Below are positions 1,675-27,823 of a stretch of DNA of 64,000 bases, piece by piece. The stretch is from assembly GCF_041886205.1 (NCBI RefSeq), contig NZ_CP169029.1; one strand, written 5' to 3'. Source of the stretch: Escherichia coli (lineage in GTDB: Bacteria; Pseudomonadota; Gammaproteobacteria; Enterobacterales; Enterobacteriaceae). A model generated the notes under the pieces. It was not told the origin of the DNA. It did no database searches and was given only the letters and a program-made list of their open reading frames with translations. The translations under genes and the position numbers were made by a program. How positions within the stretch are numbered: the stretch's first letter is position 1; the number at the start of each line of letters is the position of its first letter.

Positions 1675-1675
1675 T

Positions 1676-2293: not shown

Positions 2294-2303
2294 GGGCTAC
2301 TCC

Positions 2304-4727
2304 TTAAACCTTTTCGATCTGGACAAGATTGCTGTGCGACGGGTTTCCCTTTGCCAGCGGTGAAGGGCGGTGAGAGGTCAGAATATTGATACTGCCGCCG
2401 TGATCGACCCGGTCACCAAACATATCCGCTTTAAGCCACGCACCTTGCCCGATGGCGGTAACGCCAGGCAGAATACGCGGAGTCACTTTTGCGGCAATCA
2501 GCATTTCTCCATTATTGTTAAATACCCGCACGGTATCGCCATGACGGATACCGCGTGCCTGAGCATCAATGGGGTTGATCCACACCTCTTGTGGGCAGGC
2601 CTGCTGTAACACATCAATATTGCCGTAGCTGGAGTGGGTACGCGCTTTGTAATGGAAGCCCGTTAACTGCAGTGGATAGGTTTTCCGCAGGGGATCGTCC
2701 CAGCCATCAAAACCTGGGGTATACGCAGGAAGGGGATGAATAATTTCATCTTTTTTCAATTCCCAGGTATCTGCAATCTTCGCCAGTCGTTCAGAATAAA
2801 TTTCGATTTTCCCCGAAGGTGTTTTCAACGGGTTTGCCTGTGGATCTTCACGGAATGCGCGGAAAGCGACGTAGTGTTCTTCCGGGCATTTTTTCTTAAA
2901 GATCCCGGTCGTTTTCATCTCCTCGTAGTCGGGCATCTCAGGGTTACGTTCCTTCGTTTTCGCATGGAGATATTTGATCCATTCATGCTGACTGCGACCT
3001 TCAGTAAAGGTTTGATAAACGTCTGGTCCTAAGCGTTTGGCGACTTCACTCAGCATCCAGTAGATGGGTTTGCGTTCAAATTTTGCTGAGGTTGCGGGTT
3101 GGGCGAGGATCACATAGCCCATATTCCCTGCAGATTCATGAGAGATAAGGTCTTCTTGCTCTGTTGGCATCAGGTCGGGCAACAGGATATCGCAATACTT
3201 AGCCGAGGCCGTCATGAAGTGGTCAATGCCAACAATCATCTCGCACTTGCTGTCATCCTGAAGCACCTCATGGGTGTGATTGATGTCGCCATGTTGATTG
3301 ATCAATGTGTTACTGGCGTAGCACCATAAAAACTTGATGGGGACATCCAGTTTTTCTTTTCCACGAACACCATCACGGGTCGCGGTCATTTCCGTACCAT
3401 GGTCGATGGCATCTGTCCATGTAAAGACGGAAATCTGCGTTTTAACAGGATTCTCGAGCATCGGGAACCATTCTACCCCCAGATCCCAGCTACCTTCGCG
3501 TACGCCTGAGTTGCCGCCGTTTATGCCGACGTTGCCGGTGAGAACGGAAAGCATGGCAATAGCGCGGGATGTTTGCTCGCCGTTGGAATGTCGTTGTGGC
3601 CCCCAACCCTGACAAATATAAGCAGGTTTTGCTGAACCGATCTCTCGTGCCAACTGGATAATTTTTTCTGCCGGGATGCTGGTGATTTTTGCTGCCCATT
3701 CCGGCGTTTTAGCTATGCCGTCAGGCCCTTCGCCCAGAATATAGGCTTTATAATGCGCGTTACGTGGTGCGTTGGCGGGCAGCGTTTTTTCATCGTAACC
3801 AACACAATATTTGTCGAGAAATGGCTGATCGACCATGTTTTCAGTAATCAGTACCCAGGCAATCGCACAGGCCAGTGCGCCATCGGTGCCAGGGCGAATG
3901 GGCAGCCATTCATCTTCACGCCCGGCAGCAGTGTCGTTATAACGTGGATCGATGACGATCATGCGTGCGTTTGAACGTTCGCGGGCTTGCTCGACGTAGT
4001 AAGTGACACCACCGCCGCTCATCCGCGTTTCTGCCGGGTTATTTCCGAACATAACGACCAGTTTCGTATTGGCGATATCATCCGGGCTGTTGCCATCATT
4101 GGCACCGAACATATAACTCATTGCGGCACTGATCTGTGCGGTACTGTAGCTGCCATAGCGACTGAGAAAACCACCGCAAGAGTTCATCAGACGGTACGGG
4201 ACGTTTGAGTTGGTGATGTTTCCGCCATCTACACCTGTTCCGTACAGGACATGTACAGCCTCATTGCCGTAATCTTTTAGGATCCGCCGAAGATTATCAC
4301 TGATGGTATCCAGGGCTTCGTCCCAACTTATCCGTTCAAATTTACCTTCACCGCGCTTGCCGACGCGCTTCATGGGATATTTCAACCTATCAGGATGATT
4401 CATCCGTCGGCGGATAGAGCGCCCGCGTAAACACGCGCGAACCTGATGATTACCGTAGACGTCGTCACCTGTCGTATCAGACTCCACCCAGTACACGGTG
4501 TCATCTTTCACATGCAAACGTAACAGACAGCGGCTCCCGCAGTTAACGGTGCAGGAACTCCAGACCGCTTTCTCTTCTACCGGAACCTCTGCCGCCCGAA
4601 CCATTTGGGAAAATGGCAGAGTGAAAGCACTGCTTGCCAGCGCGAGACTGCCAAGTGCGGAGGTTTTCATCAGACTTCTACGGCTGATTTCAGCCTTCAT
4701 GAGCGCCTCTGTGGTATGGATTTTCAT
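2304..4727 (-). CDS. ynfF: Tat-exported molybdopterin oxidoreductase catalytic subunit (DmsA paralogue)
   Basis: 807 aa; twin-arginine signal SRRSLMK; N-terminal Cys cluster CTVNCGSRC; large MopB-type protein. Confidence 0.9.
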   Translation of the reverse strand: MKIHTTEALMKAEISRRSLMKTSALGSLALASSAFTLPFSQMVRAAEVPVEEKAVWSSCTVNCGSRCLLRLHVKDDTVYWVESDTTGDDVYGNHQVRACLRGRSIRRRMNHPDRLKYPMKRVGKRGEGKFERISWDEALDTISDNLRRILKDYGNEAVHVLYGTGVDGGNITNSNVPYRLMNSCGGFLSRYGSYSTAQISAAMSYMFGANDGNSPDDIANTKLVVMFGNNPAETRMSGGGVTYYVEQARERSNARMIVIDPRYNDTAAGREDEWLPIRPGTDGALACAIAWVLITENMVDQPFLDKYCVGYDEKTLPANAPRNAHYKAYILGEGPDGIAKTPEWAAKITSIPAEKIIQLAREIGSAKPAYICQGWGPQRHSNGEQTSRAIAMLSVLTGNVGINGGNSGVREGSWDLGVEWFPMLENPVKTQISVFTWTDAIDHGTEMTATRDGVRGKEKLDVPIKFLWCYASNTLINQHGDINHTHEVLQDDSKCEMIVGIDHFMTASAKYCDILLPDLMPTEQEDLISHESAGNMGYVILAQPATSAKFERKPIYWMLSEVAKRLGPDVYQTFTEGRSQHEWIKYLHAKTKERNPEMPDYEEMKTTGIFKKKCPEEHYVAFRAFREDPQANPLKTPSGKIEIYSERLAKIADTWELKKDEIIHPLPAYTPGFDGWDDPLRKTYPLQLTGFHYKARTHSSYGNIDVLQQACPQEVWINPIDAQARGIRHGDTVRVFNNNGEMLIAAKVTPRILPGVTAIGQGAWLKADMFGDRVDHGGSINILTSHRPSPLAKGNPSHSNLVQIEKV

Positions 4728-4787
4728 CATTACTCACTTATTGCTTTTCAAACAAAATGTCATGCCAGAATTTATGGTTGTAGTGGG

Positions 4788-7214
4788 TTATATTTTTTCG
4801 ATCTCGACCAGATTAGTGTGCTGCGGGTTTCCCTTCGCCAGTGGTGAAGGGCGCAGAGTGGTTAGCGTATTCACACAGCCGCCATGGTCGATTTTATCGC
4901 CAGACATATTGGCCTCGTGCCAGGCTCCCTGGCCCATAGCGCTAACTCCAGGGAGAATACGTGGTGTCACTTTGGCTGGTAGCCGAACTTCGCCACGATG
5001 GTTAAACACCCGCACCATATCGCCGTTGGCAATCCCACGTTTCTGCGCATCTATAGGGTTGATCCACACCTCCTGACGGCAGGCTGCTTTCAGGACATCA
5101 ATGTTGCCGTAGGTCGAGTGAGTACGGGATTTGTAATGGAAACCAAACAGTTGCAGTGGGAAGGTTCTACGTTCAGGGGAGTCCCAGCCTTCAAAGGTAG
5201 AGGCATAAACTGGCAGTGGGCTTATCACTTCATCTTTTTCCAGTTCCCAGGTACGGGCAATTTCCGCCAGCTTGCTGGAATAAATTTCAATCTTACCGGA
5301 AGGTGTTTTAAGTGGATTTGCCTCGGGGTCGTCACGAAATGCTTTGTAGGCGACAAAATGACCATTGGGATCTTTACGCTTATAGATACCCATTTTTTTC
5401 AGTTCGTCGTAAGACGGTAACGCCGGATCTTTGGCAAGCATTTTGGCGTACAGATGTTGTAACCATTGTTCCTGCGTGCGACCTTCAGTGAACTTTTGAT
5501 AGACGTCAGGTCCAAGACGTTTCGCGACTTCACTCAGGATCCAGTAAATCGGTTTGCGTTCGAATTTTTCGCTGGTGACAGGCTGGAGGAAAATGAGATA
5601 TCCCATGTTACCGGCGTAGTCGTTAGGAATAATATCTTCCTGCTCAACGGTCATCAGGTCTGGCAGCAGAATGTCGGCATATTTTGCCGATGAGGTCATA
5701 AAGTTTTCGATGACCACAATCATTTCGCATTTCGATTCGTCCTGCAGAATTTCATGCGTTTTGTTGATGTCAGAATGCTGATTAACGAGGGTATTTCCCG
5801 CGTAGTTCCAGATGAACTTAATGGGCACATCCAGTTTATCTTTGCCCCGGACGCCGTCGCGGATTGCCGTCATTTTGGGGCCATGATCGATAGCATCTGT
5901 CCAGCTGAAGCAGGAAATTGACGTTTTGACCGGATTATCCAGCACCGGCAGGCGCTCTATGGTAATGGTATAGGTCGATTCACGCGCGCCACTATTTCCG
6001 CCGCTGATGCCGACATTGCCCGTCAAAATAGGTAACATAGCAATAGCGCGTGCAGTCAGTTCGCCGTTTGCCTGGCGTTGTGGCCCCCAGCCCTGGCAGA
6101 TATAAGCGGGTTTTGCTGTGCCAATTTCACGCGCCAGTTTGATGATACGGTCCTCCGGGATACCGGTAATTTGCGAAGCCCACTGCGGCGTTTTCGCTGT
6201 TTTATCGTCACCTTCACCAAGAATATAGGCTTTATAGTGACCATTTTTGGGTGCATCTGCGGGTAAGGTTTTTTCGTCATAGCCGACGCAGTATTTATCG
6301 AGAAAAGGTTGATCAACGAGATTTTCGTTAATCAATACCCAGGCAATACCCGCAACCAGCGCGGCATCGGTGCCCGGGCGAATAGGGAGCCATTCGTCTT
6401 CACGACCGGCAGCCGTATCGGTATATCGCGGATCGATAACAATCATTTTGGCGTTCGATTTCTCGCGCGCTTTTTCAAGAAGATAAGTGATGCCACCACC
6501 GCTCATGCGGGTTTCTGCCGGGTTGTTACCAAACATCACGACCAGCTTGCTGTTTTCAATATCCGTGGTGCTGTTGCCATCATTACTGCCGTAGGTGTAG
6601 GGCATGGCACAGGAAATTTGCGCAGTGCTGTAGGAGCCATACTGGTTGAGTGAACCGCCGTAGCAGTTCATCAGGCGTTTGACCGCCGAGGCTGATGGCG
6701 AAGAGCGGGTCATATTGCCGCCAACGATCCCCGAAGAGTACTGAATATATACAGCCTCATTGCCATATTGTTCGACGGTTTTCTTCAGGCTACTGGCGAT
6801 AGTATCCAGGGCTTCATCCCAGCTAATCCGTTCGAATTTGCCTTCGCCGCGTTTGCCCACGCGTTTCATTGGGTAATTCAAGCGATCGGGATGATTAATA
6901 CGCCGGCGGATGGAGCGACCGCGCAAACAGGCGCGTACCTGATGGTTGCCGTACTCATCGCTGCCGGTATTGTCAGTTTCCACCCAGGTCACTTCATTAT
7001 CTTTAACATGTAGACGAAGTGCACAGCGGCTACCACAGTTGACGGAACAGGCACCCCAGACCACTTTTTCGCGGGCCTGTTGTACCGATGCTGCTGCATT
7101 GCGCAGGGTAAACGGCAAAGAAAAACCGCCTGCAGCCAGCGCCAGAGAACCTATCGCGGTAGATTTAACGAGTGTTCTGCGGCTGATGCCCACCATTCGT
7201 TCATTTTTGGACAT
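4788..7214 (-). CDS. ynfE: Tat-exported molybdopterin oxidoreductase catalytic subunit (DmsA paralogue)
   Basis: 808 aa; twin-arginine signal SRRTLVK; CSVNCGSRC motif; colinear paralogue of ynfF directly upstream in the same operon. Confidence 0.9.
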   Translation of the reverse strand: MSKNERMVGISRRTLVKSTAIGSLALAAGGFSLPFTLRNAAASVQQAREKVVWGACSVNCGSRCALRLHVKDNEVTWVETDNTGSDEYGNHQVRACLRGRSIRRRINHPDRLNYPMKRVGKRGEGKFERISWDEALDTIASSLKKTVEQYGNEAVYIQYSSGIVGGNMTRSSPSASAVKRLMNCYGGSLNQYGSYSTAQISCAMPYTYGSNDGNSTTDIENSKLVVMFGNNPAETRMSGGGITYLLEKAREKSNAKMIVIDPRYTDTAAGREDEWLPIRPGTDAALVAGIAWVLINENLVDQPFLDKYCVGYDEKTLPADAPKNGHYKAYILGEGDDKTAKTPQWASQITGIPEDRIIKLAREIGTAKPAYICQGWGPQRQANGELTARAIAMLPILTGNVGISGGNSGARESTYTITIERLPVLDNPVKTSISCFSWTDAIDHGPKMTAIRDGVRGKDKLDVPIKFIWNYAGNTLVNQHSDINKTHEILQDESKCEMIVVIENFMTSSAKYADILLPDLMTVEQEDIIPNDYAGNMGYLIFLQPVTSEKFERKPIYWILSEVAKRLGPDVYQKFTEGRTQEQWLQHLYAKMLAKDPALPSYDELKKMGIYKRKDPNGHFVAYKAFRDDPEANPLKTPSGKIEIYSSKLAEIARTWELEKDEVISPLPVYASTFEGWDSPERRTFPLQLFGFHYKSRTHSTYGNIDVLKAACRQEVWINPIDAQKRGIANGDMVRVFNHRGEVRLPAKVTPRILPGVSAMGQGAWHEANMSGDKIDHGGCVNTLTTLRPSPLAKGNPQHTNLVEIEKI

Positions 7215-7313
7215 AACTCACTCCCTGTTCTTTATCGTTATATAAAAGTTTATATATTGAATATTTAGCGCGCTAACAATAGAGGGAGTCTACCCATTTT
7301 GGGTTAAGAATTA

Positions 7314-7327
7314 TTAATCCATATCAA
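7314..7327 (-). promoter_or_regulatory. candidate FNR site (TTGAT-N4-ATTAA on operon strand) about 105 bp upstream of ynfE
   Basis: Near-consensus FNR half-sites at the right distance for an anaerobic operon; only one half-site is perfect. Confidence 0.3.
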
Positions 7328-7412
7328 TAGAAGGGTATGAGTAATAAGGTGGGATTATGTTGTATGTTCAAATCGCCGGATTTGTCATATCCGGCGTTCA
7401 GTCGATAATGTG

Positions 7413-7718
7413 TTACTGCGGTTCGGCAGGCGCGCCATCCTGGCTAGACTGCGCGGGAGCAGAGACGTTACCGCTGGTGGTGCGGGTATAGAGAATTTTA
7501 TGCGTATCATTAGCGCAATGGCCGACGACCTGGGAATCAGGCTGATCAACCTGGTCATTGGGTACAATACTTAACGTGAAGCTGCTTTCGGGTACGCCAT
7601 TATTGATAATGCGCTGTGATATATCGCTCTGTATGCGCTCACAGGATCCCGGCGCGGCGAGTACCGCGGGTGAGGCGAGGGCGAGCAGAAGCGCGGCACA
7701 GCAGGTTGAGAGTTTCAT
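7413..7718 (-). CDS. ynfD: small secreted protein YnfD
   Basis: Track ORF 115 aa; start placed at MKLSTCCAALLLALASPAVLAAP (signal peptide), giving 101 aa. Confidence 0.7.
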   Translation of the reverse strand: MKLSTCCAALLLALASPAVLAAPGSCERIQSDISQRIINNGVPESSFTLSIVPNDQVDQPDSQVVGHCANDTHKILYTRTTSGNVSAPAQSSQDGAPAEPQ

Positions 7719-7825
7719 CATAAGCTCCTTACGCGAAGATAACTTCTTTAAGCATAGCATTTAACGTGTAAAGTACTGTATTTGCTACTATGATTGAGAA
7801 TCATCTCTACTCTCTGGTGACTGTT

Positions 7826-8536
7826 GTGAAATACAAATTACTACCATGCTTACTCGCGATATTCCTCACAGGATGTGACCGCACAGAGGTAACACTTTCA
7901 TTTACCCCTGAGATGGCCAGTTTCTCTAATGAATTCGATTTTGATCCGCTGCGTGGTCCGGTAAAAGATTTCACTCAGACATTAATGGATGAGCAAGGTG
8001 AAGTGACGAAACGTGTTTCTGGGACTTTGTCGGAAGAAGGCTGTTTTGATTCACTCGAATTACTGGATCTGGAAAATAATACCGTGGTCGCTCTGGTACT
8101 GGACGCCAATTATTACCGTGATGCCGAGACGCTGGAGAAGAGAGTACGTTTACAGGGAAAATGCCAGCTAGCAGAATTACCTTCTGCCGGGGTGAGTTGG
8201 GAAACCGATGATAATGGCTTCGTGATTAAAGCCAGCAGCAAACAAATGCAGATGGAATATCGCTATGATGATCAGGGTTATCCGCTGGGTAAAACCACGA
8301 AAAGTAACGACAAAACATTATCTGTCAGCGCCACGCCATCAACGGATCCGATCAAAAAATTAGATTACACAGCGGTTACTTTACTGAATAATCAACGGGT
8401 TGGTAATGTAAAACAGAGCTGTGAATATGACAGTCACGCTAATCCGGTGGACTGTCAGCTAATCATTGTTGATGAAGGAGTAAAACCCGCCGTCGAACGG
8501 GTTTACACCATCAAAAATACGATCGATTATTATTAA
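7826..8536 (+). CDS. ynfC: lipoprotein YnfC
   Basis: Lipobox LTGC near N-terminus; GTG at 7826 gives 236 aa; the ATG at 7790 is an alternative start. Confidence 0.7.
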   Translation: MKYKLLPCLLAIFLTGCDRTEVTLSFTPEMASFSNEFDFDPLRGPVKDFTQTLMDEQGEVTKRVSGTLSEEGCFDSLELLDLENNTVVALVLDANYYRDAETLEKRVRLQGKCQLAELPSAGVSWETDDNGFVIKASSKQMQMEYRYDDQGYPLGKTTKSNDKTLSVSATPSTDPIKKLDYTAVTLLNNQRVGNVKQSCEYDSHANPVDCQLIIVDEGVKPAVERVYTIKNTIDYY

Positions 8537-8538
8537 TG

Positions 8539-9099
8539 CTATTGTGCGGTCGGCTTCAGGAGAGTCTGACCCGGTGTTTTGTGCTCTGCCAGATACTGAT
8601 GCTGGAATATACACATGCGAATGGCATTACGATATTGACCATTAATAAAGAACTCGTGCATCAATTCACCTTCAACCGAAAAGCCAAGCTTGCGGTAAAT
8701 GTGAATCGCTTTTTCATTCTCTTTATCAACGATCAGATACAGCTTATAGAGATTGAGAACGGTGAAGCCATAGTCCATTGCTAATTTGGCGGCACGGGTT
8801 GCCAGACCTTTCCCCTGATACTCCGGGGAGATAATTATCTGAAATTCTGCGCGGCGATGAACATGGTTAATTTCCACCAGCTCCACCAGACCGGCTTTTT
8901 CGCCGTCACATTCCACCACAAAGCGCCGTTCGCTCTGATCGTGAATATGCTTATCATACAGATCAGAGAGTTCAACAAAGGCTTCGTAGGGTTCCTCAAA
9001 CCAGTAACGCATCACACTGGCGTTATTGTCGAGTTGATGTACATAGCGTAAATCTTCACGCTCCAGCGGGCGTAGCTTAACACTGTGGGCGCTTGGCAT
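8539..9099 (-). CDS. speG: spermidine N1-acetyltransferase
   Basis: 186 aa GNAT-family protein ([26 protein letters not shown]...), recognised as SpeG. Confidence 0.9.
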
Positions 9100-9133
9100 A
9101 ACGTGTCCTTACATTCCTTAAATCAATAACAGG

Positions 9134-9475
9134 TTAGGGGGTAATAACGCGGCCAGTTCGACGGTCCAGGCAGCGCAAAGTATTTGGCTCCCAGTAGGCA
9201 TTGATGTTGGCGCTTTGCTCGCATTTATCGCGGTTATCAAAAGCGGCGTCGGCTTTATCCCACTCTTTTTCAGTGCGTTTATTCACTTTCTGGCGCAGAT
9301 TGCGCGTGTCATTCCATTGCTCTTTTTCCATAGCGGCGTGCTGGCGACTTTGTGCACTGTCGCCAGACTCAATCACCAGTTTGTTAGTTTCGGCATGAAC
9401 AGTTGTGCTCAATGCCAGTGCGCAAGGCAGCAGAAAAGCGAGCAGGCCGATTCGTTTGCTGAGAGTGATTTTCAT
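9134..9475 (-). CDS. ynfB: secreted/membrane protein YnfB
   Basis: 113 aa with N-terminal signal peptide; position between speG and ynfA. Confidence 0.7.
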
Positions 9476-9609
9476 AATTCATTCCCTGTATGAATGATTA
9501 AAGGTGATTCTACACCATCCACTGCGAACGCAAAACGTACCAGGTGGGTGTTTATATTGATGATATTATGTCGCCCTATAACTATACATGATGTCAATAA
9601 GTGACAAAG

Positions 9610-9936
9610 ATGATTAAAACAACGTTACTATTTTTTGCTACTGCGCTGTGTGAAATTATTGGATGCTTTCTGCCCTGGTTGTGGTTAAAACGAAACGCCA
9701 GTATCTGGCTGTTGCTTCCGGCGGGGATTTCACTGGCGCTGTTTGTCTGGTTGTTAACGTTGCATCCAGCGGCGAGTGGGCGTGTTTACGCGGCTTATGG
9801 TGGCGTTTATGTCTGCACGGCGTTGATGTGGCTGCGCGTTGTGGATGGCGTGAAACTGACTCTTTATGACTGGACGGGTGCGTTGATTGCGCTTTGCGGC
9901 ATGTTGATCATTGTTGCGGGCTGGGGGCGCACGTAG
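9610..9936 (+). CDS. ynfA: small inner-membrane protein YnfA
   Basis: 108 aa from MIKTTLLFF...; four predicted TM segments. Confidence 0.75.
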
Positions 9937-10043
9937 GAACATAAATCCATTTTATCAATAAGATAAGAGGAAGTGTCAGCTGACAAAAGGTATTCTATTT
10001 CATCTTTTGTCAACCATTCACAGCGCAAATATACGCTTTTTTT

Positions 10044-10051
10044 GTGATCAC
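10044..10051. promoter_or_regulatory. palindrome GTGATCAC about 90 bp upstream of rspA; candidate GntR-family (YdfH) operator
   Basis: Perfect 8-bp palindrome of GT-N4-AC type in the rspA promoter region; the GntR-family gene ydfH lies nearby. Confidence 0.25.
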
Positions 10052-10140
10052 TCCGGCTTTTTTCAATCTTCATACTTGTATGGTAGTAGCTCAGATGCGT
10101 AGATTTCATGCATCACGACAAGCGATGCAAGGAATCGAAC

Positions 10141-11355
10141 ATGAAGATCGTAAAGGCTGAAGTTTTTGTTACCTGTCCGGGGCGTAATTTCGTCACATTA
10201 AAAATCACCACTGAGGACGGTATTACGGGCCTTGGGGATGCCACCCTCAATGGACGTGAGCTTTCCGTGGCCTCTTATTTGCAGGATCACCTTTGTCCGC
10301 AGCTTATTGGTCGCGATGCGCACCGTATCGAAGATATCTGGCAGTTTTTCTATAAAGGTGCTTACTGGCGTCGCGGTCCGGTTACGATGTCGGCCATTTC
10401 AGCGGTTGATATGGCGCTGTGGGATATTAAAGCCAAAGCTGCCAACATGCCGCTTTACCAGTTACTCGGCGGCGCGTCTCGTGAAGGGGTGATGGTTTAT
10501 TGCCATACCACCGGTCACAGTATTGATGAAGCTCTGGATGATTATGCCCGTCATCAGGAGCTGGGATTCAAAGCCATCCGCGTGCAGTGCGGAATCCCTG
10601 GTATGAAAACCACCTACGGCATGTCGAAAGGTAAAGGTCTGGCTTATGAACCCGCAACCAAAGGACAGTGGCCGGAAGAGCAGCTGTGGTCGACGGAGAA
10701 ATACCTCGATTTCATGCCGAAATTGTTTGACGCGGTACGTAACAAGTTTGGTTTTAATGAACATTTGCTGCATGACATGCACCATCGCTTAACGCCTATT
10801 GAAGCGGCGCGCTTTGGTAAAAGCATTGAAGATTATCGCATGTTCTGGATGGAAGACCCGACGCCTGCGGAAAACCAGGAATGCTTCCGTCTCATTCGCC
10901 AACATACCGTCACACCCATCGCAGTGGGTGAAGTCTTCAACAGCATCTGGGACTGCAAACAACTGATTGAAGAGCAACTCATCGATTATATCCGCACCAC
11001 GCTGACCCATGCAGGCGGAATTACCGGTATGCGCCGGATTGCCGATTTTGCTTCGCTGTATCAGGTACGTACTGGCTCACACGGTCCTTCCGATTTGTCA
11101 CCAGTCTGCATGGCTGCGGCGCTGCACTTTGATCTGTGGGTCCCCAATTTCGGTGTCCAGGAATACATGGGTTATTCCGAACAAATGCTCGAAGTCTTCC
11201 CGCACAACTGGACTTTCGATAACGGCTATATGCATCCGGGAGACAAACCGGGTCTTGGTATCGAATTCGATGAAAAGCTGGCGGCGAAATATCCCTATGA
11301 ACCTGCTTATCTACCAGTCGCACGTCTGGAAGATGGCACGCTGTGGAACTGGTAA
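10141..11355 (+). CDS. rspA: enolase-superfamily mannonate dehydratase / starvation-sensing protein
   Basis: 404 aa from [24 protein letters not shown]...; RBS AAGGAA upstream. Confidence 0.85.
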
Positions 11356-15989: not shown

Positions 15990-16316
15990 ATGACTAAAAA
16001 TACTCGTTTTTCCCCCGAAGTCCGTCAACGGGCAGTCCGTATGGTTCTGGAAAGTCAGAGCGAATATGACTCACAATGGGCGACAATTTGTTCCATTGCT
16101 CCAAAGATTGGCTGTACGCCGGAGACTCTGCGTGTCTGGGTTCGCCAGCATGAGCGGGATACCGGGGGCGGTGATGGAGGGCTCACCACCGCTGAACGTC
16201 AGCGTCTGAAAGAGCTGGAACGTGAAAATCGTGAACTGCGCCGCAGTAACGATATCCTTCGCCAGGCTTCCGCTTATTTTGCGAAGGCGGAGTTCGACCG
16301 CCTCTGGAAAAAATGA
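15990..16316 (+). CDS. IS3-family transposase OrfA (HTH)
   Basis: 108 aa [21 protein letters not shown]...; leucine-zipper-like C-terminus. Confidence 0.85.
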
Positions 16317-17203
16317 TGCCACTGCTGGATAAGCTGCGTGAGCAGTACGGGGTCGGACCGCTATGCAGCGAACTGCATATTGCCCCGTCAACGTATTACC
16401 ACTGTCAGCAACAGCGACATCATCCGGATAAACGCAGTGCCCGTGCGCAGCGCGATGACTGGCTGAAGAAAGAGATACAGCGCGTATACGATGAAAATCA
16501 CAAGGTATACGGTGTGCGTAAAGTCTGGCGTCAGTTGTTACGGGAAGGTATCAGAGTGGCCAGATGCACTGTGGCACGTCTCATGGCGGTTATGGGACTT
16601 GCCGGTGTTCTCCGGGGTAAAAAGGTCCGTACGACCATCAGCCGGAAAGCCGTTGCCGCAGGCGACCGCGTAAACCGTCAGTTCGTGGCAGAACGACCTG
16701 ACCAGCTGTGGGTGGCTGATTTTACTTACGTCAGCACATGGCGGGGCTTCGTCTATGTGGCGTTCATCATTGATGTGTTTGCCGGATACATCGTGGGGTG
16801 GCGGGTCTCATCGTCCATGGAAACGACATTCGTGCTGGATGCACTGGAGCAGGCGTTATGGGCCCGTCGACCGTCCGGCACGGTCCATCACAGTGATAAA
16901 GGTTCTCAGTATGTATCGCTGGCCTACACACAGCGGCTTAAGGAAGCCGGATTACTGGCATCAACAGGAAGTACAGGCGACTCGTATGACAACGCGATGG
17001 CGGAGAGCATCAATGGTCTTTACAAAGCGGAGGTAATACACCGTAAGAGCTGGAAAAACCGTGCAGAAGTGGAACTGGCCACACTCACGTGGGTGGACTG
17101 GTATAACAATCGACGATTGCTGGAAAGGCTGGGCCATACTCCTCCGGCAGAAGCAGAAAAAGCTTATTATGCTTCCATCGGAAACGATGATCTGGCAGCC
17201 TGA
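16313..17203 (+). CDS. IS3-family transposase OrfB (DDE integrase core)
   Basis: 296 aa with rve-type DDE domain; overlaps orfA in -1 frame. Confidence 0.85.
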
Positions 17204-20288: not shown

Positions 20289-21365
20289 GTGAGTATGGCT
20301 AACGCCTGGCTCAGATTATGGCATGACATGCCAAATGACCCTAAGTGGCGAACAATTGCCAGGGTGTCAGGGCAGCCAATTGCAACAGTGATGGCAGTGT
20401 ATATCCACCTCTTGGTGAGCGCGTCACGAAATGTCACGCGAGGTCACATTGATGTCACGACAGAAGATTTGGCAAGTGCGCTCGACGTGACAGAAGAGGT
20501 AATTGATTCAATTTTGCAGACGATGCAGGGGCGGGTACTTGATGGTGATTTAATCACTGGATGGGAAAAACGCCAGGTGCTTAAAGAGGACAACGGCAAT
20601 ATTTCGCAAACCGCAAAATCTCCTGCAGAGCGCAAGAGGGCGCAGCGAGAGAGGGAAAGAAAGCGGGAACAAAATGGCGATTGTCACGGCGCGTCACGAA
20701 ATGTCACGCACATGTCACGACGAGTCACGACAGATAAAGATACAGATAAAGATACAGATCAAGAAGATCAAAACACTATGGTCCATGGCGTAAAAAACGC
20801 CACGAACCAGGCAGGGGATGTTCAGACCGTCAATCTTGGTCAGCCAGCAGGCACGACACCGGAAGCCGATTCAGCGTATGCGCTGAAAGCCGATTCGGGC
20901 GCTGTGCAGCAGGTGATGACCGCAAGGCCGGAGCAATCACACCAACTGCAGCAGCCCGAAGCCGATTCCGCCATTCAGCGGGAAGCCGATCGGGTAGTCC
21001 CGGAAAACACCGGGCAGTCTGTGGGACGAGTGGATTATCCGGATGTGTTCGAACAGGTCTGGCGGGAGTACCCGTTGCGTGCCGGAGCAAACCCGAAGAA
21101 ATCCGCTTTCAGTGCCTGGAAGGCCAGATTACGCGAGGGGGTGCCACCAGAGGCCATGCTGGATGGCGTGAGGCGTTACGCAAGATACTTGGCGGCTACC
21201 GGGAAAACGGGAACGGAATTTGTTCAGCGAGCGACGACGTTTTTTGGACCGGACCGGAATTTTGAGAACTCCTGGTTGCTCCCGGTAAGCGGCACGAACA
21301 ACCAGCGTTGTGTGAATCATATTTCTGAACCGGATAACGAAATTCCGCCGGGCTTCAGGGGGTAA
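20289..21365 (+). CDS. phage replication initiator / replisome organiser, O-like
   Basis: 358 aa; N-terminal WLRLWHDMPNDPKW motif; the coding sequence contains iterons; GTG start with RBS. Confidence 0.6.
   Translation: MSMANAWLRLWHDMPNDPKWRTIARVSGQPIATVMAVYIHLLVSASRNVTRGHIDVTTEDLASALDVTEEVIDSILQTMQGRVLDGDLITGWEKRQVLKEDNGNISQTAKSPAERKRAQRERERKREQNGDCHGASRNVTHMSRRVTTDKDTDKDTDQEDQNTMVHGVKNATNQAGDVQTVNLGQPAGTTPEADSAYALKADSGAVQQVMTARPEQSHQLQQPEADSAIQREADRVVPENTGQSVGRVDYPDVFEQVWREYPLRAGANPKKSAFSAWKARLREGVPPEAMLDGVRRYARYLAATGKTGTEFVQRATTFFGPDRNFENSWLLPVSGTNNQRCVNHISEPDNEIPPGFRG
20423..20765 (+). repeat. putative replication origin: nine GTCAC(G/A) iterons in two clusters plus an AT-rich tandem repeat
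   Basis: Iterons at 20423, 20433, 20443, 20454 and 20683, 20693, 20703, 20714, 20724 (10-11 bp spacing); then GATACAGATAAA x2.5. Confidence 0.5.
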
Positions 21366-21405
21366 GTGTTAATTTCTGGTCATGAGGTAATTTTCAGGAG
21401 GGCTT

Positions 21406-21828
21406 GTGGCAAAAGTTTTTACACAAGAAGAGCGGGAAAAAATTAAAGGGCAGGTTGTTGAACTCGTACGCCAGAGTGGGCGCGAGACGTTAAGACAACT
21501 GGAAACTAAAACTGGGGCAACAAAATATATGATGAACGTTCTGGCCAGAGAGCTGGTTGCCAGTGGCGATGTATACAACTCTGGTTACGGGTTATTCCCG
21601 TCTGAACAGGCGCGTAAGGACTGGCAAAATGCCCGTAAAAAGCTCTCAAGGGCAAAGCTGAAGAAACCATCTGCGGTTGATCCGGACCTTATCTGGTCAT
21701 TACCTGATGGAGAAATACGTCGTTACGACAGGCGTCATAATATGATTTGTACTGAGTGTCGTAAAAGCGAAGTTATGCAGCGCATATTGTCGTTTTATCA
21801 GGGGGATGTTCGGTATTTATTGAAGTGA
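21406..21828 (+). CDS. hypothetical phage protein
   Basis: 140 aa; GTG start 6 nt after AGGAGG; contains C-x2-C. Confidence 0.45.
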   Translation: MAKVFTQEEREKIKGQVVELVRQSGRETLRQLETKTGATKYMMNVLARELVASGDVYNSGYGLFPSEQARKDWQNARKKLSRAKLKKPSAVDPDLIWSLPDGEIRRYDRRHNMICTECRKSEVMQRILSFYQGDVRYLLK

Positions 21829-22223
21829 CGAGATTAAAGTGCATTAGTTCAGATGCAAATTGACATTTTGTGGCACAGGGTAGAGCTAGCGTGGTTGTCC
21901 GCTTTGTGCCAACAGCGGACATTATGGAAGGTCAGAGTTAAAGATTAAAATGGGATGCTGTGTGTTTTCTCCAGGTTTTGCTCTATACCTTTCGGGATAC
22001 TCCACCGACAGAATACGAAAATCAACATTATCAACGGCTCGAAGTGTCTAGATTATCCATGGCAATTCATGGGAAATCCCATCCAACGGCTTATGCTTCA
22101 TGTTGCTTTTTGAGATCGCTTCTAGCATAGCTCCACTCAATAATGTTGTCGGGTCGTTGCTGATCGAAAAGGATACGGGATTCAATACCATTACCTAAAA
22201 AGCTGGTACCGGAACTCGGGCTG

Positions 22224-23228
22224 GTGGTCGTTAAGCCGGGCCGTGAATCCATGCCGGTATTCCACAATACCCGGGTACTGGTGGAGCCGGAACCGAAAAG
22301 CATGCGTAATCTGCCGTCCGGGGTCGTTCCTGCCGTTCGCCAGCCGCTGGTGGAAGACAAAACATTGCTGCCGTTTTTCAGTAACGCACGGGTAATTCGT
22401 GCTGCTGGTGGTGCTGGTGCATTGTCTGACTGGCTGTTGCGCCATATTAAATCCTGCCAGTGGCCACACGGCGATTATCATCACAGCGAAACCGTTATTC
22501 ACCGATATGGTACCGGCGCAATGGTGTTGTGCTGGCACTGCGACAACCAGCTGCGTGACCAGACATCCGAATCACTCGAGCAACTTGCTCATCAAAACCT
22601 GTCAGCATGGATGATTGACGTCATCGGTCACGCAATAAGCGGTACGCAGGAGCGTGAATTATCTCTGGCTGAATTATCCTGGTGGGCGGTCCGCAATCAG
22701 CTGGCGGACGCGCTACCGGAAGCGGTATTACGTCGCTCGCTGGGATTACCAGCGGAAAAAATCTGCTCGGTGTACCGCGAAAGCGACATCGTACCGGGAG
22801 AGCAGACCGCCACCAGCATATTGAAACAGCGCACAAAAAATCTTGCACCGTTGCCTCACGCCCACCAGCAACAAAACCCATCACAGGAAAAGACGGTGGT
22901 AAGCATCACCGTTGATCCAGAGTCTCCGGAATCTTTCATGAAGCTGCCTAAACGTCACCGGTGGGTTAAGGAGAAATACACACGCTGGGTTAAGACACAG
23001 CCGTGTGCTTGCTGCGGTATGCCAGCCGACGATCCGCATCATCTGATTGGTCACGGGCAGGGCGGAATGGGAACCAAAGCACATGATCTCTTTGTTTTGC
23101 CTTTGTGCAGAAAGCATCACGACGAGTTGCATACGGATACCGTGGCATTTGAAGAGAAGTATGGCTCCCAACTGGAGCTGATTTTTCGATTTATCGATCG
23201 CGCGCTGGCAATTGGTGTGCTGGCCTAA
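22224..23228 (+). CDS. DUF968-type protein with C-terminal HNH-like motif (YdfU/NinG-like)
   Basis: 334 aa; C-terminus [21 protein letters not shown]...[10 protein letters not shown]; directly upstream of Q. Confidence 0.6.
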
Positions 23229-23245
23229 TTTTGTGGAGTAAGTTG

Positions 23246-23623
23246 ATGCGTGATATTCAGATGGTTCTTGAGCGTTGGGGGGCATGGGCGGCTAATAATC
23301 ATGAAGATGTGACCTGGTCGTCCATTGCCGCCGGTTTTAAGGGATTAATTCCTTCAAAAGTAAGATCTCGTCCGCAATGCTGTGACGATGACGCGATGAT
23401 CATTTGTGAATGTATGGCTCGCCTGAAAAAAAACAACAGCGATTTACATGATTTATTGGTGGACTATTATGTCGGCGGCATGACTTTTATGGCGCTTGCA
23501 CATAAGCATGGGCGATCTGATTGTTGGGTTGGCAGGATGCTCCAGAAAGCTGAGGGCGTAGTGGAGGGCATGCTGATGGTGTTGGATCTCCGATTGGAGA
23601 TGGATGCTGATTGTTCGAAATAA
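23246..23623 (+). CDS. quuQ: late-gene antiterminator Q
   Basis: 125 aa [24 protein letters not shown]...; recognised from memory as near-identical to the Qin antiterminator. Confidence 0.75.
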
Positions 23624-23635
23624 TTAAAGGAAAAG

Positions 23636-23664
23636 TTGCTGTCTGATTTTCATTAGTCTAACAT
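23636..23664 (+). promoter_or_regulatory. candidate late promoter PR' (-35 TTGCTG, 17-bp spacer, -10 TAACAT)
   Basis: Sigma70-like elements just downstream of Q and upstream of a terminator, the classic PR'/qut/tR' arrangement. Confidence 0.4.
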
Positions 23665-23721
23665 TTTAAATGTTGGAATCGCAACGTAGTTATTATCATA
23701 TAACAGCTTGTTTCCTGATTT

Positions 23722-23750
23722 AGCCAGCCTCCCCAAAGGCTGGTTTTTTT
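23722..23750 (+). terminator. Rho-independent terminator (tR'-like)
   Basis: Stem CCAGCC/GGCTGG with 8-nt loop followed by T7. Confidence 0.6.
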
Positions 23751-23778
23751 CTAATAAGTATCATTTCGGGTGGGGATT

Positions 23779-24303
23779 TTATTGTTTAACCCATAATAGT
23801 TCATTGACATTGAATCCCAACTTTTGAGCGGTACGCACATAGTCTGCTTTTACATTATCTGGAATAGTTTGGGTCCTTGCCAGAATCCATAGGTATTCTC
23901 TGTTCGGACCACTGACAAGAGCATACTTATACTCATCATCCAGTTTGATTACATTATAGCCACCATAGAAGGGGCCAAAAAACGAAACTTTCAACGCTGC
24001 AGTTTTAGTATCTCCAGTAAAGTATGCTTTACCTTCGCTCTCGCTCCATTTGTTTTTCGTTGGATCGTATCCACGGTTAAGTACGCGAATCCCTCCGTCG
24101 TTCCGTTTTTCATAAGTAGCGCTGACCTGTTCCAGACCACGTTCGAACCAGTTCTCGAGGCGAGCTATTTCATACCATTTTCCGAGGTAGCGGTTGGCGT
24201 CAAAATTTGTAATCGGCTGCACACCTTTAGGTGGTGTCGGGGCCTTACATGCTATAAGAGTGAAAGAGAGTGCAATGCCAGTCAACACAGGCCATAACTT
24301 CAT
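23779..24303 (-). CDS. bacterial lipocalin (Blc-like outer-membrane lipoprotein)
   Basis: 174 aa; lipobox LIAC; lipocalin motifs NFDANRYLGKWYEIARL and YKYALVSGPNREYLWILAR. Confidence 0.8.
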   Translation of the reverse strand: MKLWPVLTGIALSFTLIACKAPTPPKGVQPITNFDANRYLGKWYEIARLENWFERGLEQVSATYEKRNDGGIRVLNRGYDPTKNKWSESEGKAYFTGDTKTAALKVSFFGPFYGGYNVIKLDDEYKYALVSGPNREYLWILARTQTIPDNVKADYVRTAQKLGFNVNELLWVKQ

Positions 24304-24495
24304 AATAAATCCTGTACTTTTGATAGTTGAGAGTAAGTATGAAAGATAGATGAGTACGACCGATCACTTAAAGAACTTTCCTACTATATTAGGAATAGTC
24401 AATAACAGAAAAATTGTCAGTGATGAAGCCAGAAAGGCAATTTAGTCCGTGCACTACAAAGTTTATGTGTTAATGAATTAGTCAAGGGGGAGGAA

Positions 24496-25455
24496 ATGAT
24501 AAAAAAACCTGTGATTGGGATCAGCGGTTGTTTGGGCGGTTCTGCTGTTCGTTTTGATGGTGGTCACAAAAGAGATGACTTTTTAATGGACAAATTAGTG
24601 GAATGGGTAACATTCAGACCAGTATGTCCGGAAATGGCTATAGGGCTGCCAGTTCCGCGTCCTGCTCTACGACTTGTGCGCTCGAAGCAAGGAAATATAC
24701 GGATGTGTTTCAGCCACGACCAGAATGAGGATGTGACAGAGAGAATGACAGAGTTTAGTCGTTCTTATATGGACAAATTAAAGGATGTATCGGGGTTTGT
24801 GGTTTGTGCTAAATCTCCCAGCTGTGGCATGGAGCGCGTGCGTGTCTATGATGAAAATGGTAATCGAGGTCGTAAAGATGGAGTGGGACTATTTACGAGC
24901 ACTTTGATGGAAAAGTTTTCCTGGCTACCGGTTGAAGAGGATGGGCGATTACATGATCCAGTGCTTCGTGAGAATTTTATTGAAAGAGTTTTTGCTTTGC
25001 ATGAGCTCAATCACCTTTACAAGGAGAAATTATCAAGAAGAGAGTTATTAGCTTTTCATAGTCGTTATAAGCTTCAGTTGTTGGCGCATAGCCAGGCAGG
25101 CTATAAAGATATGGGACCATTTGTGGCTGCAATACACGAGTGGGCGGACCTTGAATCATACTTTGAGGTGTATCGTGATAATCTGATGGCGATTCTCAGA
25201 AAACCAGCATCACGTAAAAATCACACGAATGTGCTGATGCATATACAGGGGTATTTTAGTAATTACTTAAGTACACGCCAGCGTAAAGAGTTGAGCGAGG
25301 TTATACTTAACTATCGCTTTGGCACATTGCCTCTTCTTGCGCCGTTGACTCTGCTGAAGCATTATCTGGGTGAGTATCCTAATGATTACTTGCTTACACA
25401 GAATTACTTCGATCCCTATCCGGAAGAACTGGCTCTAAGACTGATGGTGAATTAA
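24496..25455 (+). CDS. DUF523-DUF1722 fusion protein (TudS/YbgA-like)
   Basis: 319 aa; N-terminal Cys-containing DUF523-like region (GISGCLGGSAVRFDGG, CPE, SPSCG); C-terminal YbgA-like region. Confidence 0.65.
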   Translation: MIKKPVIGISGCLGGSAVRFDGGHKRDDFLMDKLVEWVTFRPVCPEMAIGLPVPRPALRLVRSKQGNIRMCFSHDQNEDVTERMTEFSRSYMDKLKDVSGFVVCAKSPSCGMERVRVYDENGNRGRKDGVGLFTSTLMEKFSWLPVEEDGRLHDPVLRENFIERVFALHELNHLYKEKLSRRELLAFHSRYKLQLLAHSQAGYKDMGPFVAAIHEWADLESYFEVYRDNLMAILRKPASRKNHTNVLMHIQGYFSNYLSTRQRKELSEVILNYRFGTLPLLAPLTLLKHYLGEYPNDYLLTQNYFDPYPEELALRLMVN

Positions 25456-25852
25456 CTGTATGCGATATCATCTGAAAGTGATGAGTTCCTGTATGCAGGA
25501 TATTTACAATCGTAAAAACTACGCTATGATGCTCATAGTGTCAGTTTTTATAAAAATCCTGTTCACGCTAAAGAAAACATTGAGATGCAATTTAATGTTG
25601 GTAAACATACCAACCCCAAAAGATTTTATTCAATCTGTTTTTATATGAAGATATTTCAAGTGAATATAAAGAGCATATAATATTATTATTGCACGCAGCT
25701 ATTATAATATAACAGATTAGTTTAATGATTTGTTTTTTGTGAGTTAAACACATGGTTTTATAGTTGTGATGCAATGAGATTTTCCTTATTGTTGAACTGG
25801 CGAATATTGATTTTCCACCTATACTTACCTGGTGTAACCCCAATGATATCAG

Positions 25853-26575
25853 GTGGATAATATGTCATACATATGTTCTATCATTTTGGTGTTGAACTCG
25901 TTTGGTGTCCGAATTGGTAAAGAAGATATTTTGTTTAAAAAAGGAAATGCTGTCCTCATTGAATACAATTTAAAAGATCTTTTTTCGTCAAATACAGATC
26001 ATCTAATGATCGTAGATGTTGAGGAGAAAACAGTTAATGATTTCTTTAAAAACTACACACTCTCACCTTTTTCTGTAAGAAGGTTTTATCCGTCATACTT
26101 GATAGTAGAATGTGAAGATTTTTCATTGTTAAAGAACTTGGTTGCATGCTTGAATTGTGATAGCAAAACCGTGGATGTAGTTAGAAATCAAATATCACTT
26201 GCATGTCTTGCTGTCTTATCTTCAGAGAAAATAGTGCAAAGTTTTTTGTTCGGAAGTCTTAATAGCTTAGGTTGTAAAGTTAAGGCTATTATTCACTCGG
26301 ATATCTCAGCGTCATGGAGACTTTGTGATATATCTTCAAGATTATATATGAGCGAGAGTTTGTTAAAAAGAAAATTAAAAGACGAAGGATTATCGTTTAG
26401 TAAATTAATTCTTGAAGAACGAATGATGATGGCGCAAAGATTATTGATCTACAGTAACCATACTGTCGGCAAGGTGGCGGGAATATGCGGGTATGACAAT
26501 GCATCATATTTTGTAAGTGTTTTTAGAGGATATTTTGGTGTGCCTCCGCACCAATATTTATCAAGATTTTCTTAG
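25853..26575 (+). CDS. AraC/XylS-family transcriptional regulator (AppY/YdeO/GadX-like)
   Basis: 240 aa; C-terminal AraC HTH (GICGYDNASYFVSVFRGYFGVPPHQY); AT-rich gene and flanks. Confidence 0.75.
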   Translation: MDNMSYICSIILVLNSFGVRIGKEDILFKKGNAVLIEYNLKDLFSSNTDHLMIVDVEEKTVNDFFKNYTLSPFSVRRFYPSYLIVECEDFSLLKNLVACLNCDSKTVDVVRNQISLACLAVLSSEKIVQSFLFGSLNSLGCKVKAIIHSDISASWRLCDISSRLYMSESLLKRKLKDEGLSFSKLILEERMMMAQRLLIYSNHTVGKVAGICGYDNASYFVSVFRGYFGVPPHQYLSRFS

Positions 26576-26765
26576 AAGATATGATGTGATGGCATTTTAT
26601 AAAGTTATTTTTTGAAGTGTAAGATTATACGATATTTTTAGCTACGCCAGAATAATTGCTGGCGTTTTTCTTTTTGAATAGATGTTCGGGCCTTACGCTA
26701 ATGTAACTTCTTTCCTTCTTCGAACCAAACCGTGTACACCATCCGTTATCTGCGGAGGTGAGGCT

Positions 26766-26981
26766 ATGAAATCCATGGATAAGTTAACAACGGGCATCGC
26801 CTACAGCACCTCTGCAGGCAGTGCTGGCTACTGGTTTTTACAGTTGCTCGATAAAGTCACGCCCTCACAGTGGGCGGCAATAGGTGTATTGGGTAGTCTG
26901 GTATTTGGCATGCTGACGTATCTGACAAATCTTTATTTCAAGATTAAAGAAGACAGGCGTAAGGCTGCGAGAGGAGAGTAA
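26766..26981 (+). CDS. essQ: phage holin
   Basis: 71 aa [29 protein letters not shown]...; one TM segment and charged C-terminus; first gene of lysis cassette. Confidence 0.8.
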
Positions 26982-26985
26982 TCCA

Positions 26986-27297
26986 ATGACTCAAGACTAT
27001 GAACTGGTTGTGAAAGGAGTCCGTAATTTTGAGAATAAAGTTACGGTAACTGTAGCCTTACAGGACAAAGAACGCTTTGACGGTGAAATTTTTGGCCTGG
27101 ATGTCGCCATGGACCGTGTTGAAGGAGCTGCGCTGGAGTTTTATGAGGCAGCAGCCAGAATGAGCGTCCGGCAAGTCTTCCTGGAAGTAGCAGAAAAATT
27201 GTCAGAAAAAGTTGAGTCTTATCTGCAGCATCAGTACTCCTTTAAGATTGAAAATCCTGACAATAAGCACGAGCGTCCTCATCATAAATATCTATGA
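26986..27297 (+). CDS. ydfR: YdfR-like phage protein
   Basis: 103 aa between holin and endolysin. Confidence 0.55.
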   Translation: MTQDYELVVKGVRNFENKVTVTVALQDKERFDGEIFGLDVAMDRVEGAALEFYEAAARMSVRQVFLEVAEKLSEKVESYLQHQYSFKIENPDNKHERPHHKYL

Positions 27298-27823
27298 ACA
27301 CAAAAATCAGATACGGCCTGTCGGCTGCCGTTCTGGCGCTGATTGGTGCTGGCGCATCTGCTCCTCAGATACTTGACCAGTTTCTGGACGAAAAAGAAGG
27401 TAACCACACAATGGCATACCGCGATGGTTCTGGCATATGGACCATCTGTCGGGGTGCCACAGTGGTGGATGGAAAAAACGTTTTTCCCAATATGAAACTG
27501 TCGAAGGAAAAATGCGACCAGGTCAACGCCATTGAGCGTGATAAGGCGCTGGCATGGGTGGAGCGCAATATAAAAGTTCCACTGACCGAGCCACAGAAAG
27601 CCGGTATCGCGTCATTCTGTCCCTATAACATTGGCCCTGGTAAGTGTTTTCCGTCGACGTTTTATAAGCGGCTTAATGCCGGTGATCGTAAAGGCGCATG
27701 CGAGGCGATTCGCTGGTGGATAAAGGACGGTGGACGTGATTGCCGCATTCGTTCAAATAATTGTTACGGTCAGGTTATTCGTCGTGACCAGGAGAGTGCA
27801 TTAACCTGCTGGGGGATAGAACA

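Follow-up and report, generated by a model that had tools for sequence, protein, structure and literature searches.

Introduction

YdfU of Escherichia coli K-12 is a DUF968 protein whose His-Me finger/HNH nature is already known from work of 2014 and 2017. Curtis et al. (2014) pointed out a zinc-finger HNH motif in proteins assigned to DUF968 (PMC4118853), and Jablonska et al. (2017) placed DUF968/YdfU together with DUF1364/YbcO in His-Me finger group 7, named YdfU, noted RusA and Q as its neighbors and proposed a NinG-like role in recombination (PMC5714182). Our literature searches returned no paper with biochemistry on YdfU or on any DUF968 protein. Here, we analyzed the ydfU open reading frame (ORF) at positions 22224–23228 of a 64,000-nucleotide (nt) stretch of E. 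coli DNA (assembly GCF_041886205.1, contig NZ_CP169029.1), referred to below as the window. We consider it probable that this ORF is the ydfU allele of a lambdoid prophage that occupies the Qin site beside rspB, that it belongs to a family of two-domain accessory HNH nucleases, and that this copy is most likely inactivated.

Several relatives and neighbors of ydfU have been studied experimentally. Work of 2026 showed Gp16 of phage PhiNM1 to be a RecA-binding nickase; it inhibits replication of the host, raises the yield of phage and is inactive when its zinc site is mutated (PMC12817073). Ref of phage P1 is a RecA-dependent HNH nuclease (PMC4330346). Also in P1, pdcB is non-essential and its knock-down or disruption is without phenotype, while lpa is essential (PMC10695390, PMC10067587). 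Within the K-12 prophage, the region is kept silent in lysogens by a very strong Rho-dependent terminator located 5' of ydfU (PMC9160355).

Identity of the ydfU Reading Frame

The ORF runs uninterrupted on the plus strand from a GTG at 22224 to a TAA stop at 23226–23228 and would encode 334 amino acids (aa); residue numbers below follow this product unless called canonical.

22224–23228, plus strand: 5'-truncated ydfU allele (DUF968), the longest ORF, whose 334 aa correspond to residues 16–349 of the canonical 349-aa protein

Against Pfam DUF968 (PF06147), the ORF scored 258 bits (E = 5.7e-77; aa 145–331), covering model positions 1–171 of 171, where the gathering cutoff is 27.8 bits. It also matched PHROG 96 ("HNH endonuclease") with E = 2.6e-166, and the strength of the two matches excludes a chance hit. 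The protein is 91% identical to K-12 YdfU (b1560) over all 334 residues, and all residues of the nuclease motif are the same in both. The first-pass annotation, made from the sequence alone, had described a DUF968-type protein directly 5' of Q, and both halves of that description hold, since the next gene encodes an antiterminator of family PF06530. The hidden Markov model search and the comparison with K-12 YdfU that it had proposed were both run; besides DUF968, the search gave a sub-threshold match to HNHc_6 and none to NinG.

Searches of NCBIfam and PADLOC with the YdfU protein gave no match, and it therefore has no curated name and no known membership of a defense system. When the protein and a 37-sequence family profile were compared with all sequences in the PDB, only a spurious RING-finger match was returned (E = 0.43). 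The gene itself is present in most E. coli genomes, a 2.4-kb query spanning ydfU and Q having matched 5,252 of 5,426 complete genomes.

Deletion of the 5' End

The GTG at 22224 is not the native start of ydfU but merely the first possible start after an in-frame stop 21 codons upstream. Family members are 349 aa long with the N-terminus MRVLLRPVLVPELGL. This canonical N-terminus (MRVLLRPV...) is kept in 78 of 79 related loci and is absent from the window copy, which falls short of the ~349-aa architecture. Block alignment to E. coli B7A located the cause: window positions 20975–22208 correspond to positions 1–1234 of the B7A locus, and window positions 22203–27500 to positions 5001–10298.

22203–22208, no strand: deletion junction with a 6-bp microhomology (CTGGTA), at which 3,766 bp present in B7A (locus 1235–5000) are missing
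22091–22208, minus strand: 3' remnant (~39 codons) of a hypothetical gene of 464 aa, which B7A has in full (locus 1117–2508, minus strand) and which the same deletion cuts

The lost segment held most of the 464-aa hypothetical gene, abiH (abortive infection), hokD (toxin), a 92-aa ORF of phrog_1212 and the 5' end of ydfU. From ydfU itself, the deletion took the native Shine-Dalgarno sequence (GGAGGT), the GTG start and the first eight codons, and the ORF that remains opens at canonical residue 16. Window positions 21829–22208 are 100% identical to the matching region in at least ten genomes, and positions 22203–23700, where the query ended, are 100% identical to many complete E. coli genomes (e.g., B7A); out to position 27500, the identity to B7A is 99.96%. 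None of the 5,426 complete E. coli genomes contains the junction, nor does any of 80 IMG/VR loci.

Shine-Dalgarno:anti-Shine-Dalgarno pairing was estimated at −10.6 kcal/mol for the native start. The internal starts, GTG at 22224 and ATG at 22251, gave −3.8 and −3.6 kcal/mol, respectively, which is the level of the background (mean −2.4 kcal/mol). A promoter and terminator scan around ydfU gave nothing above shuffled expectation that bears on expression. In a model of the canonical N-terminus, residues 1–18 form three beta-strands (predicted local distance difference test, pLDDT, 90–93). A truncated product would lose two of these three N-terminal strands, and its first 40 residues have pLDDT values of 67–77 in the AlphaFold2 (AF2) model. 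Because the start signals were lost to the deletion, this copy is probably not expressed, and because the rest of the ORF is undamaged, the loss looks recent. On the sequence evidence, the window copy is probably a recent pseudogene, recently inactivated and most likely translated poorly or not at all.

The phrog_1212 ORF (92 aa, no Pfam match; B7A locus 4697–4975) ends 1 nt before the native ydfU start. It abuts ydfU upstream in all 61 related loci with enough downstream sequence, which are E. coli prophages of 84–99% identity and thus close relatives rather than phylogenetically independent cases. Given this arrangement, it may be a translationally coupled partner gene of ydfU. Separately, some database proteins (P0148, P0194, P0195 and P0124) join the 5' part of ydfU to fragments of tail-fiber, tail-tip J or portal genes. 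Alternative domain fusions among the longer relatives were considered on this account and rejected, as these proteins look like deletion scars of prophage decay.

Predicted Two-Domain Structure and Nuclease Core

An AF2 model was built from a 37-sequence alignment of diverse relatives with 26–91% identity. The model was confident (mean pLDDT 87) and strongly predicts two domains joined by a flexible linker, which in the alignment is poorly aligned and variable in length.

22224–22862, plus strand: N-terminal domain, aa 1–213, a folded alpha/beta domain (AF2 pLDDT 87–88)
22455–22541, plus strand: putative structural zinc site of the N-terminal domain, C78-x7-H86-x16-C103-W-H-C106, followed by D107-N108
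22863–22901, plus strand: flexible inter-domain linker, aa 214–226, the sole segment with pLDDT <50
22905–23225, plus strand: C-terminal His-Me finger (HNH) nuclease domain, aa 228–334
23004–23132, plus strand: beta-beta-alpha-metal core, placed from the translation, the AF2 model and the register with Gp16

The first-pass annotation had quoted a C-terminal motif, C-x2-C...DDPHH...G..G...K..D...LC.KHH.ELH, and likened it to a His-Me finger nuclease core. The motif is present exactly as quoted in the translation of 23004–23132, and the resemblance extends to the predicted fold, which contains a beta-beta-alpha finger (helix 250–257, strand 270–273, strand 291–294 and helix 296–304). In the model, the first strand ends in H272 and H273, D288 precedes the second, C295 caps the following helix and H299 and H303 stand one turn apart on it. 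H273 is the last position of the first strand and aligns with H157 of Gp16, as expected of the catalytic histidine in the His-Me superfamily; likewise, H299 and H303 on helix 296–304 correspond to the metal-binding residues of the superfamily helix, and D288, just before the second strand, to its Asn/Asp between the strands. A Cys3His zinc site formed by C261, C264, C295 and H298 is predicted to brace the unit. The roles given to individual zinc ligands and active-site residues are assigned by analogy and should be read as putative.

Conservation was scored across 86 representatives of 50%-identity clusters covering the core. The key histidines are retained in most (H272, 91%; H273, 92%; H299, 90%; H303, 88%), as are D288 (99%) and P293 (94%), and the zinc ligands follow (C261, 84%; C264, 71%; C295, 84%; H/C298, 76%). 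The complete residue set is found in 51 of the 86, the catalytic histidines are absent from 13, P1 PdcB among these, and one subclade has lost C264 and C295 jointly. A complete active site is kept by ~85% of the representatives and appears to be under selection. Taken with the model, these figures strongly predict an intact zinc-braced HNH active site of the DUF968/HNHc_6 type.

Structure comparison of the YdfU model gave its highest score with P1 Ref (3plw; 7.9, 79 residues aligned), followed by IscB (6.3), Cap5 (5.9), YbcO (3g27; 5.9, root-mean-square deviation 2.2 Å, 69 of 81 residues), ScoMcrA and EcoKMcrA (5.2 and 4.9, respectively) and the GVE2 HNH protein (4.5). Top Foldseek matches to the same model were mostly HNH proteins, none of them significant.

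The N-terminal domain is separate from the nuclease domain. Residues 1–144 have no Pfam model (DUF968 begins at aa 145), and a comparison of 36 diverse N-terminal domains with Pfam found no other recurrent family. The putative zinc site sits on a beta-hairpin and helix in the AF2 model (strands 90–95 and 98–103, helix 104–110). Its four ligands (C78, H86, C103 and C106) are 96–99% conserved. In 71 of 77 representatives, each of the four columns holds Cys or His, the two residues interchanging at columns 86 and 106. An Orf/NinB-like fold, such as Curtis et al. (2014) had for their "DUF968" proteins from Listeria and Staphylococcus, was considered for this domain and rejected, as alignment of the family profile to lambda Orf/NinB with hhalign gave a probability of only 0.1–0.3%.

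Relatives of the C-terminal Domain

With hhalign, the family profile (full-length or C-terminal domain) was also compared with individual nucleases. The best match was PhiNM1 Gp16 (probability 94.5%, E 7e-8, 34% identity over 65 columns), then YbcO (78–80%) and P1 Ref (76%). Residues C261, C264, H273, C295, H298, H299 and H303 of YdfU fall in register with C145, C148, H157, C181, H184, H185 and H189 of Gp16. The HNHc_6 model (PF16784) scored 24.3 bits over aa 256–313 only, under its cutoff of 26.6 bits, yet the HNH cores are homologous by the hhalign match to Gp16. As judged from these alignments, the closest characterized relative of YdfU is the RecA-interacting nickase Gp16. The ORF had no Pfam match to RecA_dep_nuc (PF16786).

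The match to lambda NinG/Rap was much weaker (7–11%, over 13–18 columns around the first Cys pair), and the Pfam search found no NinG match (PF05766) at E ≤ 0.01. The first-pass annotation had compared the C-terminal motif with Rap/NinG-type structure-specific endonucleases; its assignment to the HNH nucleases stands, and the analogy to Rap/NinG is unsupported, the kinship being at the superfamily level only.

Prophage Context

The DNA of the window is a lambdoid prophage of E. coli, located at the Qin site beside rspB/ynfA. Upstream of ydfU lie genes for a cI-like repressor, a Cro/cII-like helix-turn-helix protein, YdaT, an O-like replication initiator and a DUF977/Ren-like protein, and downstream lies the late-gene antiterminator.

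21406–21828, plus strand: DUF977/Ren-like gene, the last intact early-operon gene upstream (Pfam DUF977, E = 6.7e-29; PHROG 142, "Ren-like exclusion protein")
23246–23623, plus strand: Q-family late-gene antiterminator, the next gene (PF06530 Phage_antitermQ, E = 1.6e-50; RefSeq annotation of the identical B7A gene)

The annotated ATG of Q at 23246 begins 17 nt past the ydfU stop and has a GGAG Shine-Dalgarno sequence 6 nt upstream (23236–23239). The program-called ORF opens with a TTG at 23231, 2 nt past the stop; of the two, the ATG is the more likely start.

Among the 61 related loci, the order ydfU-rusA-Q is found in 53, with rusA ~22 nt downstream of ydfU, and ydfU stands directly before Q in eight, as it does in the window and in K-12. 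Farther afield, the DUF968 gene lies directly before Q or Lpa, or with rusA alone between, in nine of ten annotated phage contexts sampled outside the lineage of the window, and likewise in K-12 Qin and B7A. RusA is encoded in the same cluster as the DUF968 gene in mEp460, Stx2a_WGPS2, Serratia BZS1 (with a 4-nt overlap), Yersinia YeP1 and 733R5, and YbcO overlaps rusA by 4 nt in DLP12. A group-7 His-Me gene (ydfU or ybcO) with rusA immediately after it is a recurrent pair, seen in those 53 E. coli prophage loci (IMG/VR, L014–L093) and in DLP12 and Serratia BZS1 (L003, 3085–3734; L007, 3411–4738). This recurrent pairing, often with a 4-nt overlap, suggests that the group-7 His-Me protein and RusA work together. 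The window prophage encodes no RusA, NinG, YbcO or Orf, so that YdfU is its only nin-region nuclease; rusA is absent from K-12 Qin too.

Two further features of the prophage were observed. Between Q and the holin gene (23779–26575) are three cargo genes (morons), namely a lipocalin on the minus strand, a 2-thiouracil desulfurase/DUF1722 protein of the YbgA family and an AraC-type regulator. On the left arm, an IS3-family element (15990–17203; HTH_Tnp_1 and rve ORFs) splits an Rv2179c-like 3'-5' exonuclease gene, in the same way as in B7A, so that the prophage would be defective even without the ydfU deletion.

Possible Functions

A role for the intact protein can be proposed from this context and from its relatives. 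Encoded last in the early operon, YdfU would be made immediately ahead of the late-gene activator. It may be an accessory nuclease, non-essential to the phage, that acts on intermediates of replication or recombination, as a rule together with RusA and not in its place. By analogy with colicin-type HNH enzymes and Gp16, H273 would serve as the general base while H272, H299 and H303 hold the catalytic divalent metal, and D288 may have a structural or metal-positioning role. The C-terminal domain would nick or cut DNA, the N-terminal domain would supply recognition of a substrate or partner, and RecA could possibly help, as with Gp16 and Ref.

A more elaborate version of this proposal seems unlikely. 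In it, YdfU would be a two-module machine: an N-terminal zinc domain not described before, perhaps a second His-Me finger that has degenerated, would recognize a DNA structure or a partner such as RecA or RusA and direct a C-terminal nickase. The protein would also serve, beyond cleavage, in the passage from replication to packaging or from early to late expression. Lambdoid and P1-like phages, which are unrelated, both encode it immediately before the late-gene activator, and P1 PdcB, catalytically dead with its position kept, would hint at a role that does not depend on cleavage only.

Gp16 suggests another possibility, that YdfU is directed at the host, nicking its DNA, engaging RecA and blocking its replication in favor of lytic growth, which would account for the silencing in lysogens. 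In favor of this are the profile comparison, in which Gp16 ranks first, and the documented phenotype of Gp16 (PMC12817073); in addition, the K-12 Rho-dependent terminator 5' of ydfU belongs to a set credited with suppressing toxic prophage genes (PMC9160355). That terminator may instead silence the downstream Q and lysis genes, however, and Gp16 is an immediate-early protein with a NinB-like N-terminal domain, whereas ydfU is the last early gene and its N-terminal domain is unrelated. With no PADLOC match either, we regard host attack as rather improbable.

It is also improbable that the protein works as Rap/NinG does (or as an equivalent of RusA), occupying the place of the resolvase in the nin region as a structure-specific endonuclease for Holliday junctions or D-loops. 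This proposal draws on the shared superfamily and the recombination role put forward by Jablonska et al. (PMC5714182), on the location between the replication genes and Q, and on the window prophage, which encodes no other nin-region nuclease. Yet the profile match to NinG is weak, as described above, and the Rap/NinG comparison in the first-pass annotation does not carry over to this role: rusA directly follows ydfU in 53 of the 61 loci and co-occurs with it in the five phages listed above, so YdfU appears to be a neighbor and partner of the junction resolvase and not its replacement or alternative.

Less probable again is a conserved function that is non-catalytic, in which the protein binds DNA or regulates the early-to-late switch, acting with the late activator or on its expression. 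In lambdoid phages the gene directly precedes Q, in the unrelated P1-like phages it directly precedes Lpa, the PdcB clade keeps the fold and position without the catalytic histidines, and the zinc site of the N-terminal domain is more conserved than that of the C-terminal domain. These points are countered by the ~85% of representatives with a complete active site, by the frequent presence of rusA between ydfU and Q, and by the P1 genetics, in which loss of pdcB had no phenotype although lpa is essential; the position may merely reflect operon order. Finally, it is very improbable that YdfU is a selfish HNH homing endonuclease of the free-standing kind or that, like HK97 gp74, it is an HNH packaging factor associated with terminase: many records label YdfU plainly as "HNH endonuclease" and pdcB lies two genes upstream of pacA in P1-like phages, but the gene is fixed and syntenic across many phages and not sporadic, the protein is large with two domains, lambdoid ydfU is far from the terminase genes, and the pacA-proximal P1 homolog is the catalytically dead one.

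Significance

Nothing in the locus points to a new kind of system, and the value of the analysis lies in corrections. The annotation of the window copy should read as 5'-truncated and a probable pseudogene. For the family, HNHc_6 (Gp16), Ref and YbcO are better comparators and should take the place of the Rap/NinG analogy, with rusA as the usual partner gene. The family is very common in enterobacterial prophages, Stx phages included, and its conserved N-terminal zinc domain has neither a Pfam model nor a described function. A study of nuclease activity and of interaction with RecA and RusA would fill a real gap in annotation.

Comparison with Known Systems

Among the systems compared, lambda Rap/NinG (PF05766) shares with YdfU the His-Me finger superfamily and a place in the nin region upstream of Q. 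It has no specific sequence relationship to YdfU and a different domain organization, and YdfU co-occurs with RusA. YbcO (DLP12/phage 82; DUF1364; PDB 3g27) is a 96-residue single domain that lacks the HH pair and CxxC of YdfU; conversely, YdfU does not have the ~96-aa single-domain form of DUF1364 proteins. P1 Ref (PDB 3plw) differs in its N-terminus, which is a basic, disordered stretch of 76 residues where YdfU has a folded domain of 213 residues.

P1 PdcB is a full-length homolog with both domains (25–26% identity over 95% of the query). It is encoded directly upstream of the late-gene activator Lpa in P1-like phages, which parallels ydfU before Q. Unlike YdfU, PdcB has lost the catalytic histidines of DPHH and ELH while keeping the Cys ligands, and it is therefore probably inactive as a nuclease. 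The P1-like loci observed were those of phage RCS47 (pdcB at locus positions 3905–4948) and Salmonella phage SJ1 (locus positions 2405–3436). A DUF968 ORF of Citrobacter phage phiNP (locus positions 2456–3523) is annotated as "antitermination protein Q (ater Q_2)", probably a misannotation taken from the adjacent true Q gene.

K-12 YdfU is encoded, like the window copy, in a prophage at the Qin site adjoining rspB and directly 5' of Q, with identical motif residues. The window copy differs in lacking the native Shine-Dalgarno sequence, the start, the first eight codons and the upstream neighbors (hokD etc.), all through its private 3,766-bp deletion. The Q genes also differ, that of K-12 being of the lambda type and that of the window belonging to PF06530.

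Gp16 is set apart by its Orf/NinB-like N-terminal domain, where that of YdfU is larger, unrelated and predicted to bind zinc, and by its immediate-early position adjoining ssb, where ydfU is the last early gene before Q. Its nuclease domain has the same layout as that of YdfU, with CxxC, nine residues, H and then C-R-x-H-H-x3-H. Like YdfU, Gp16 is a phage protein of two domains whose gene lies among those for replication and recombination, and the Gp16 genome also encodes a RusA.
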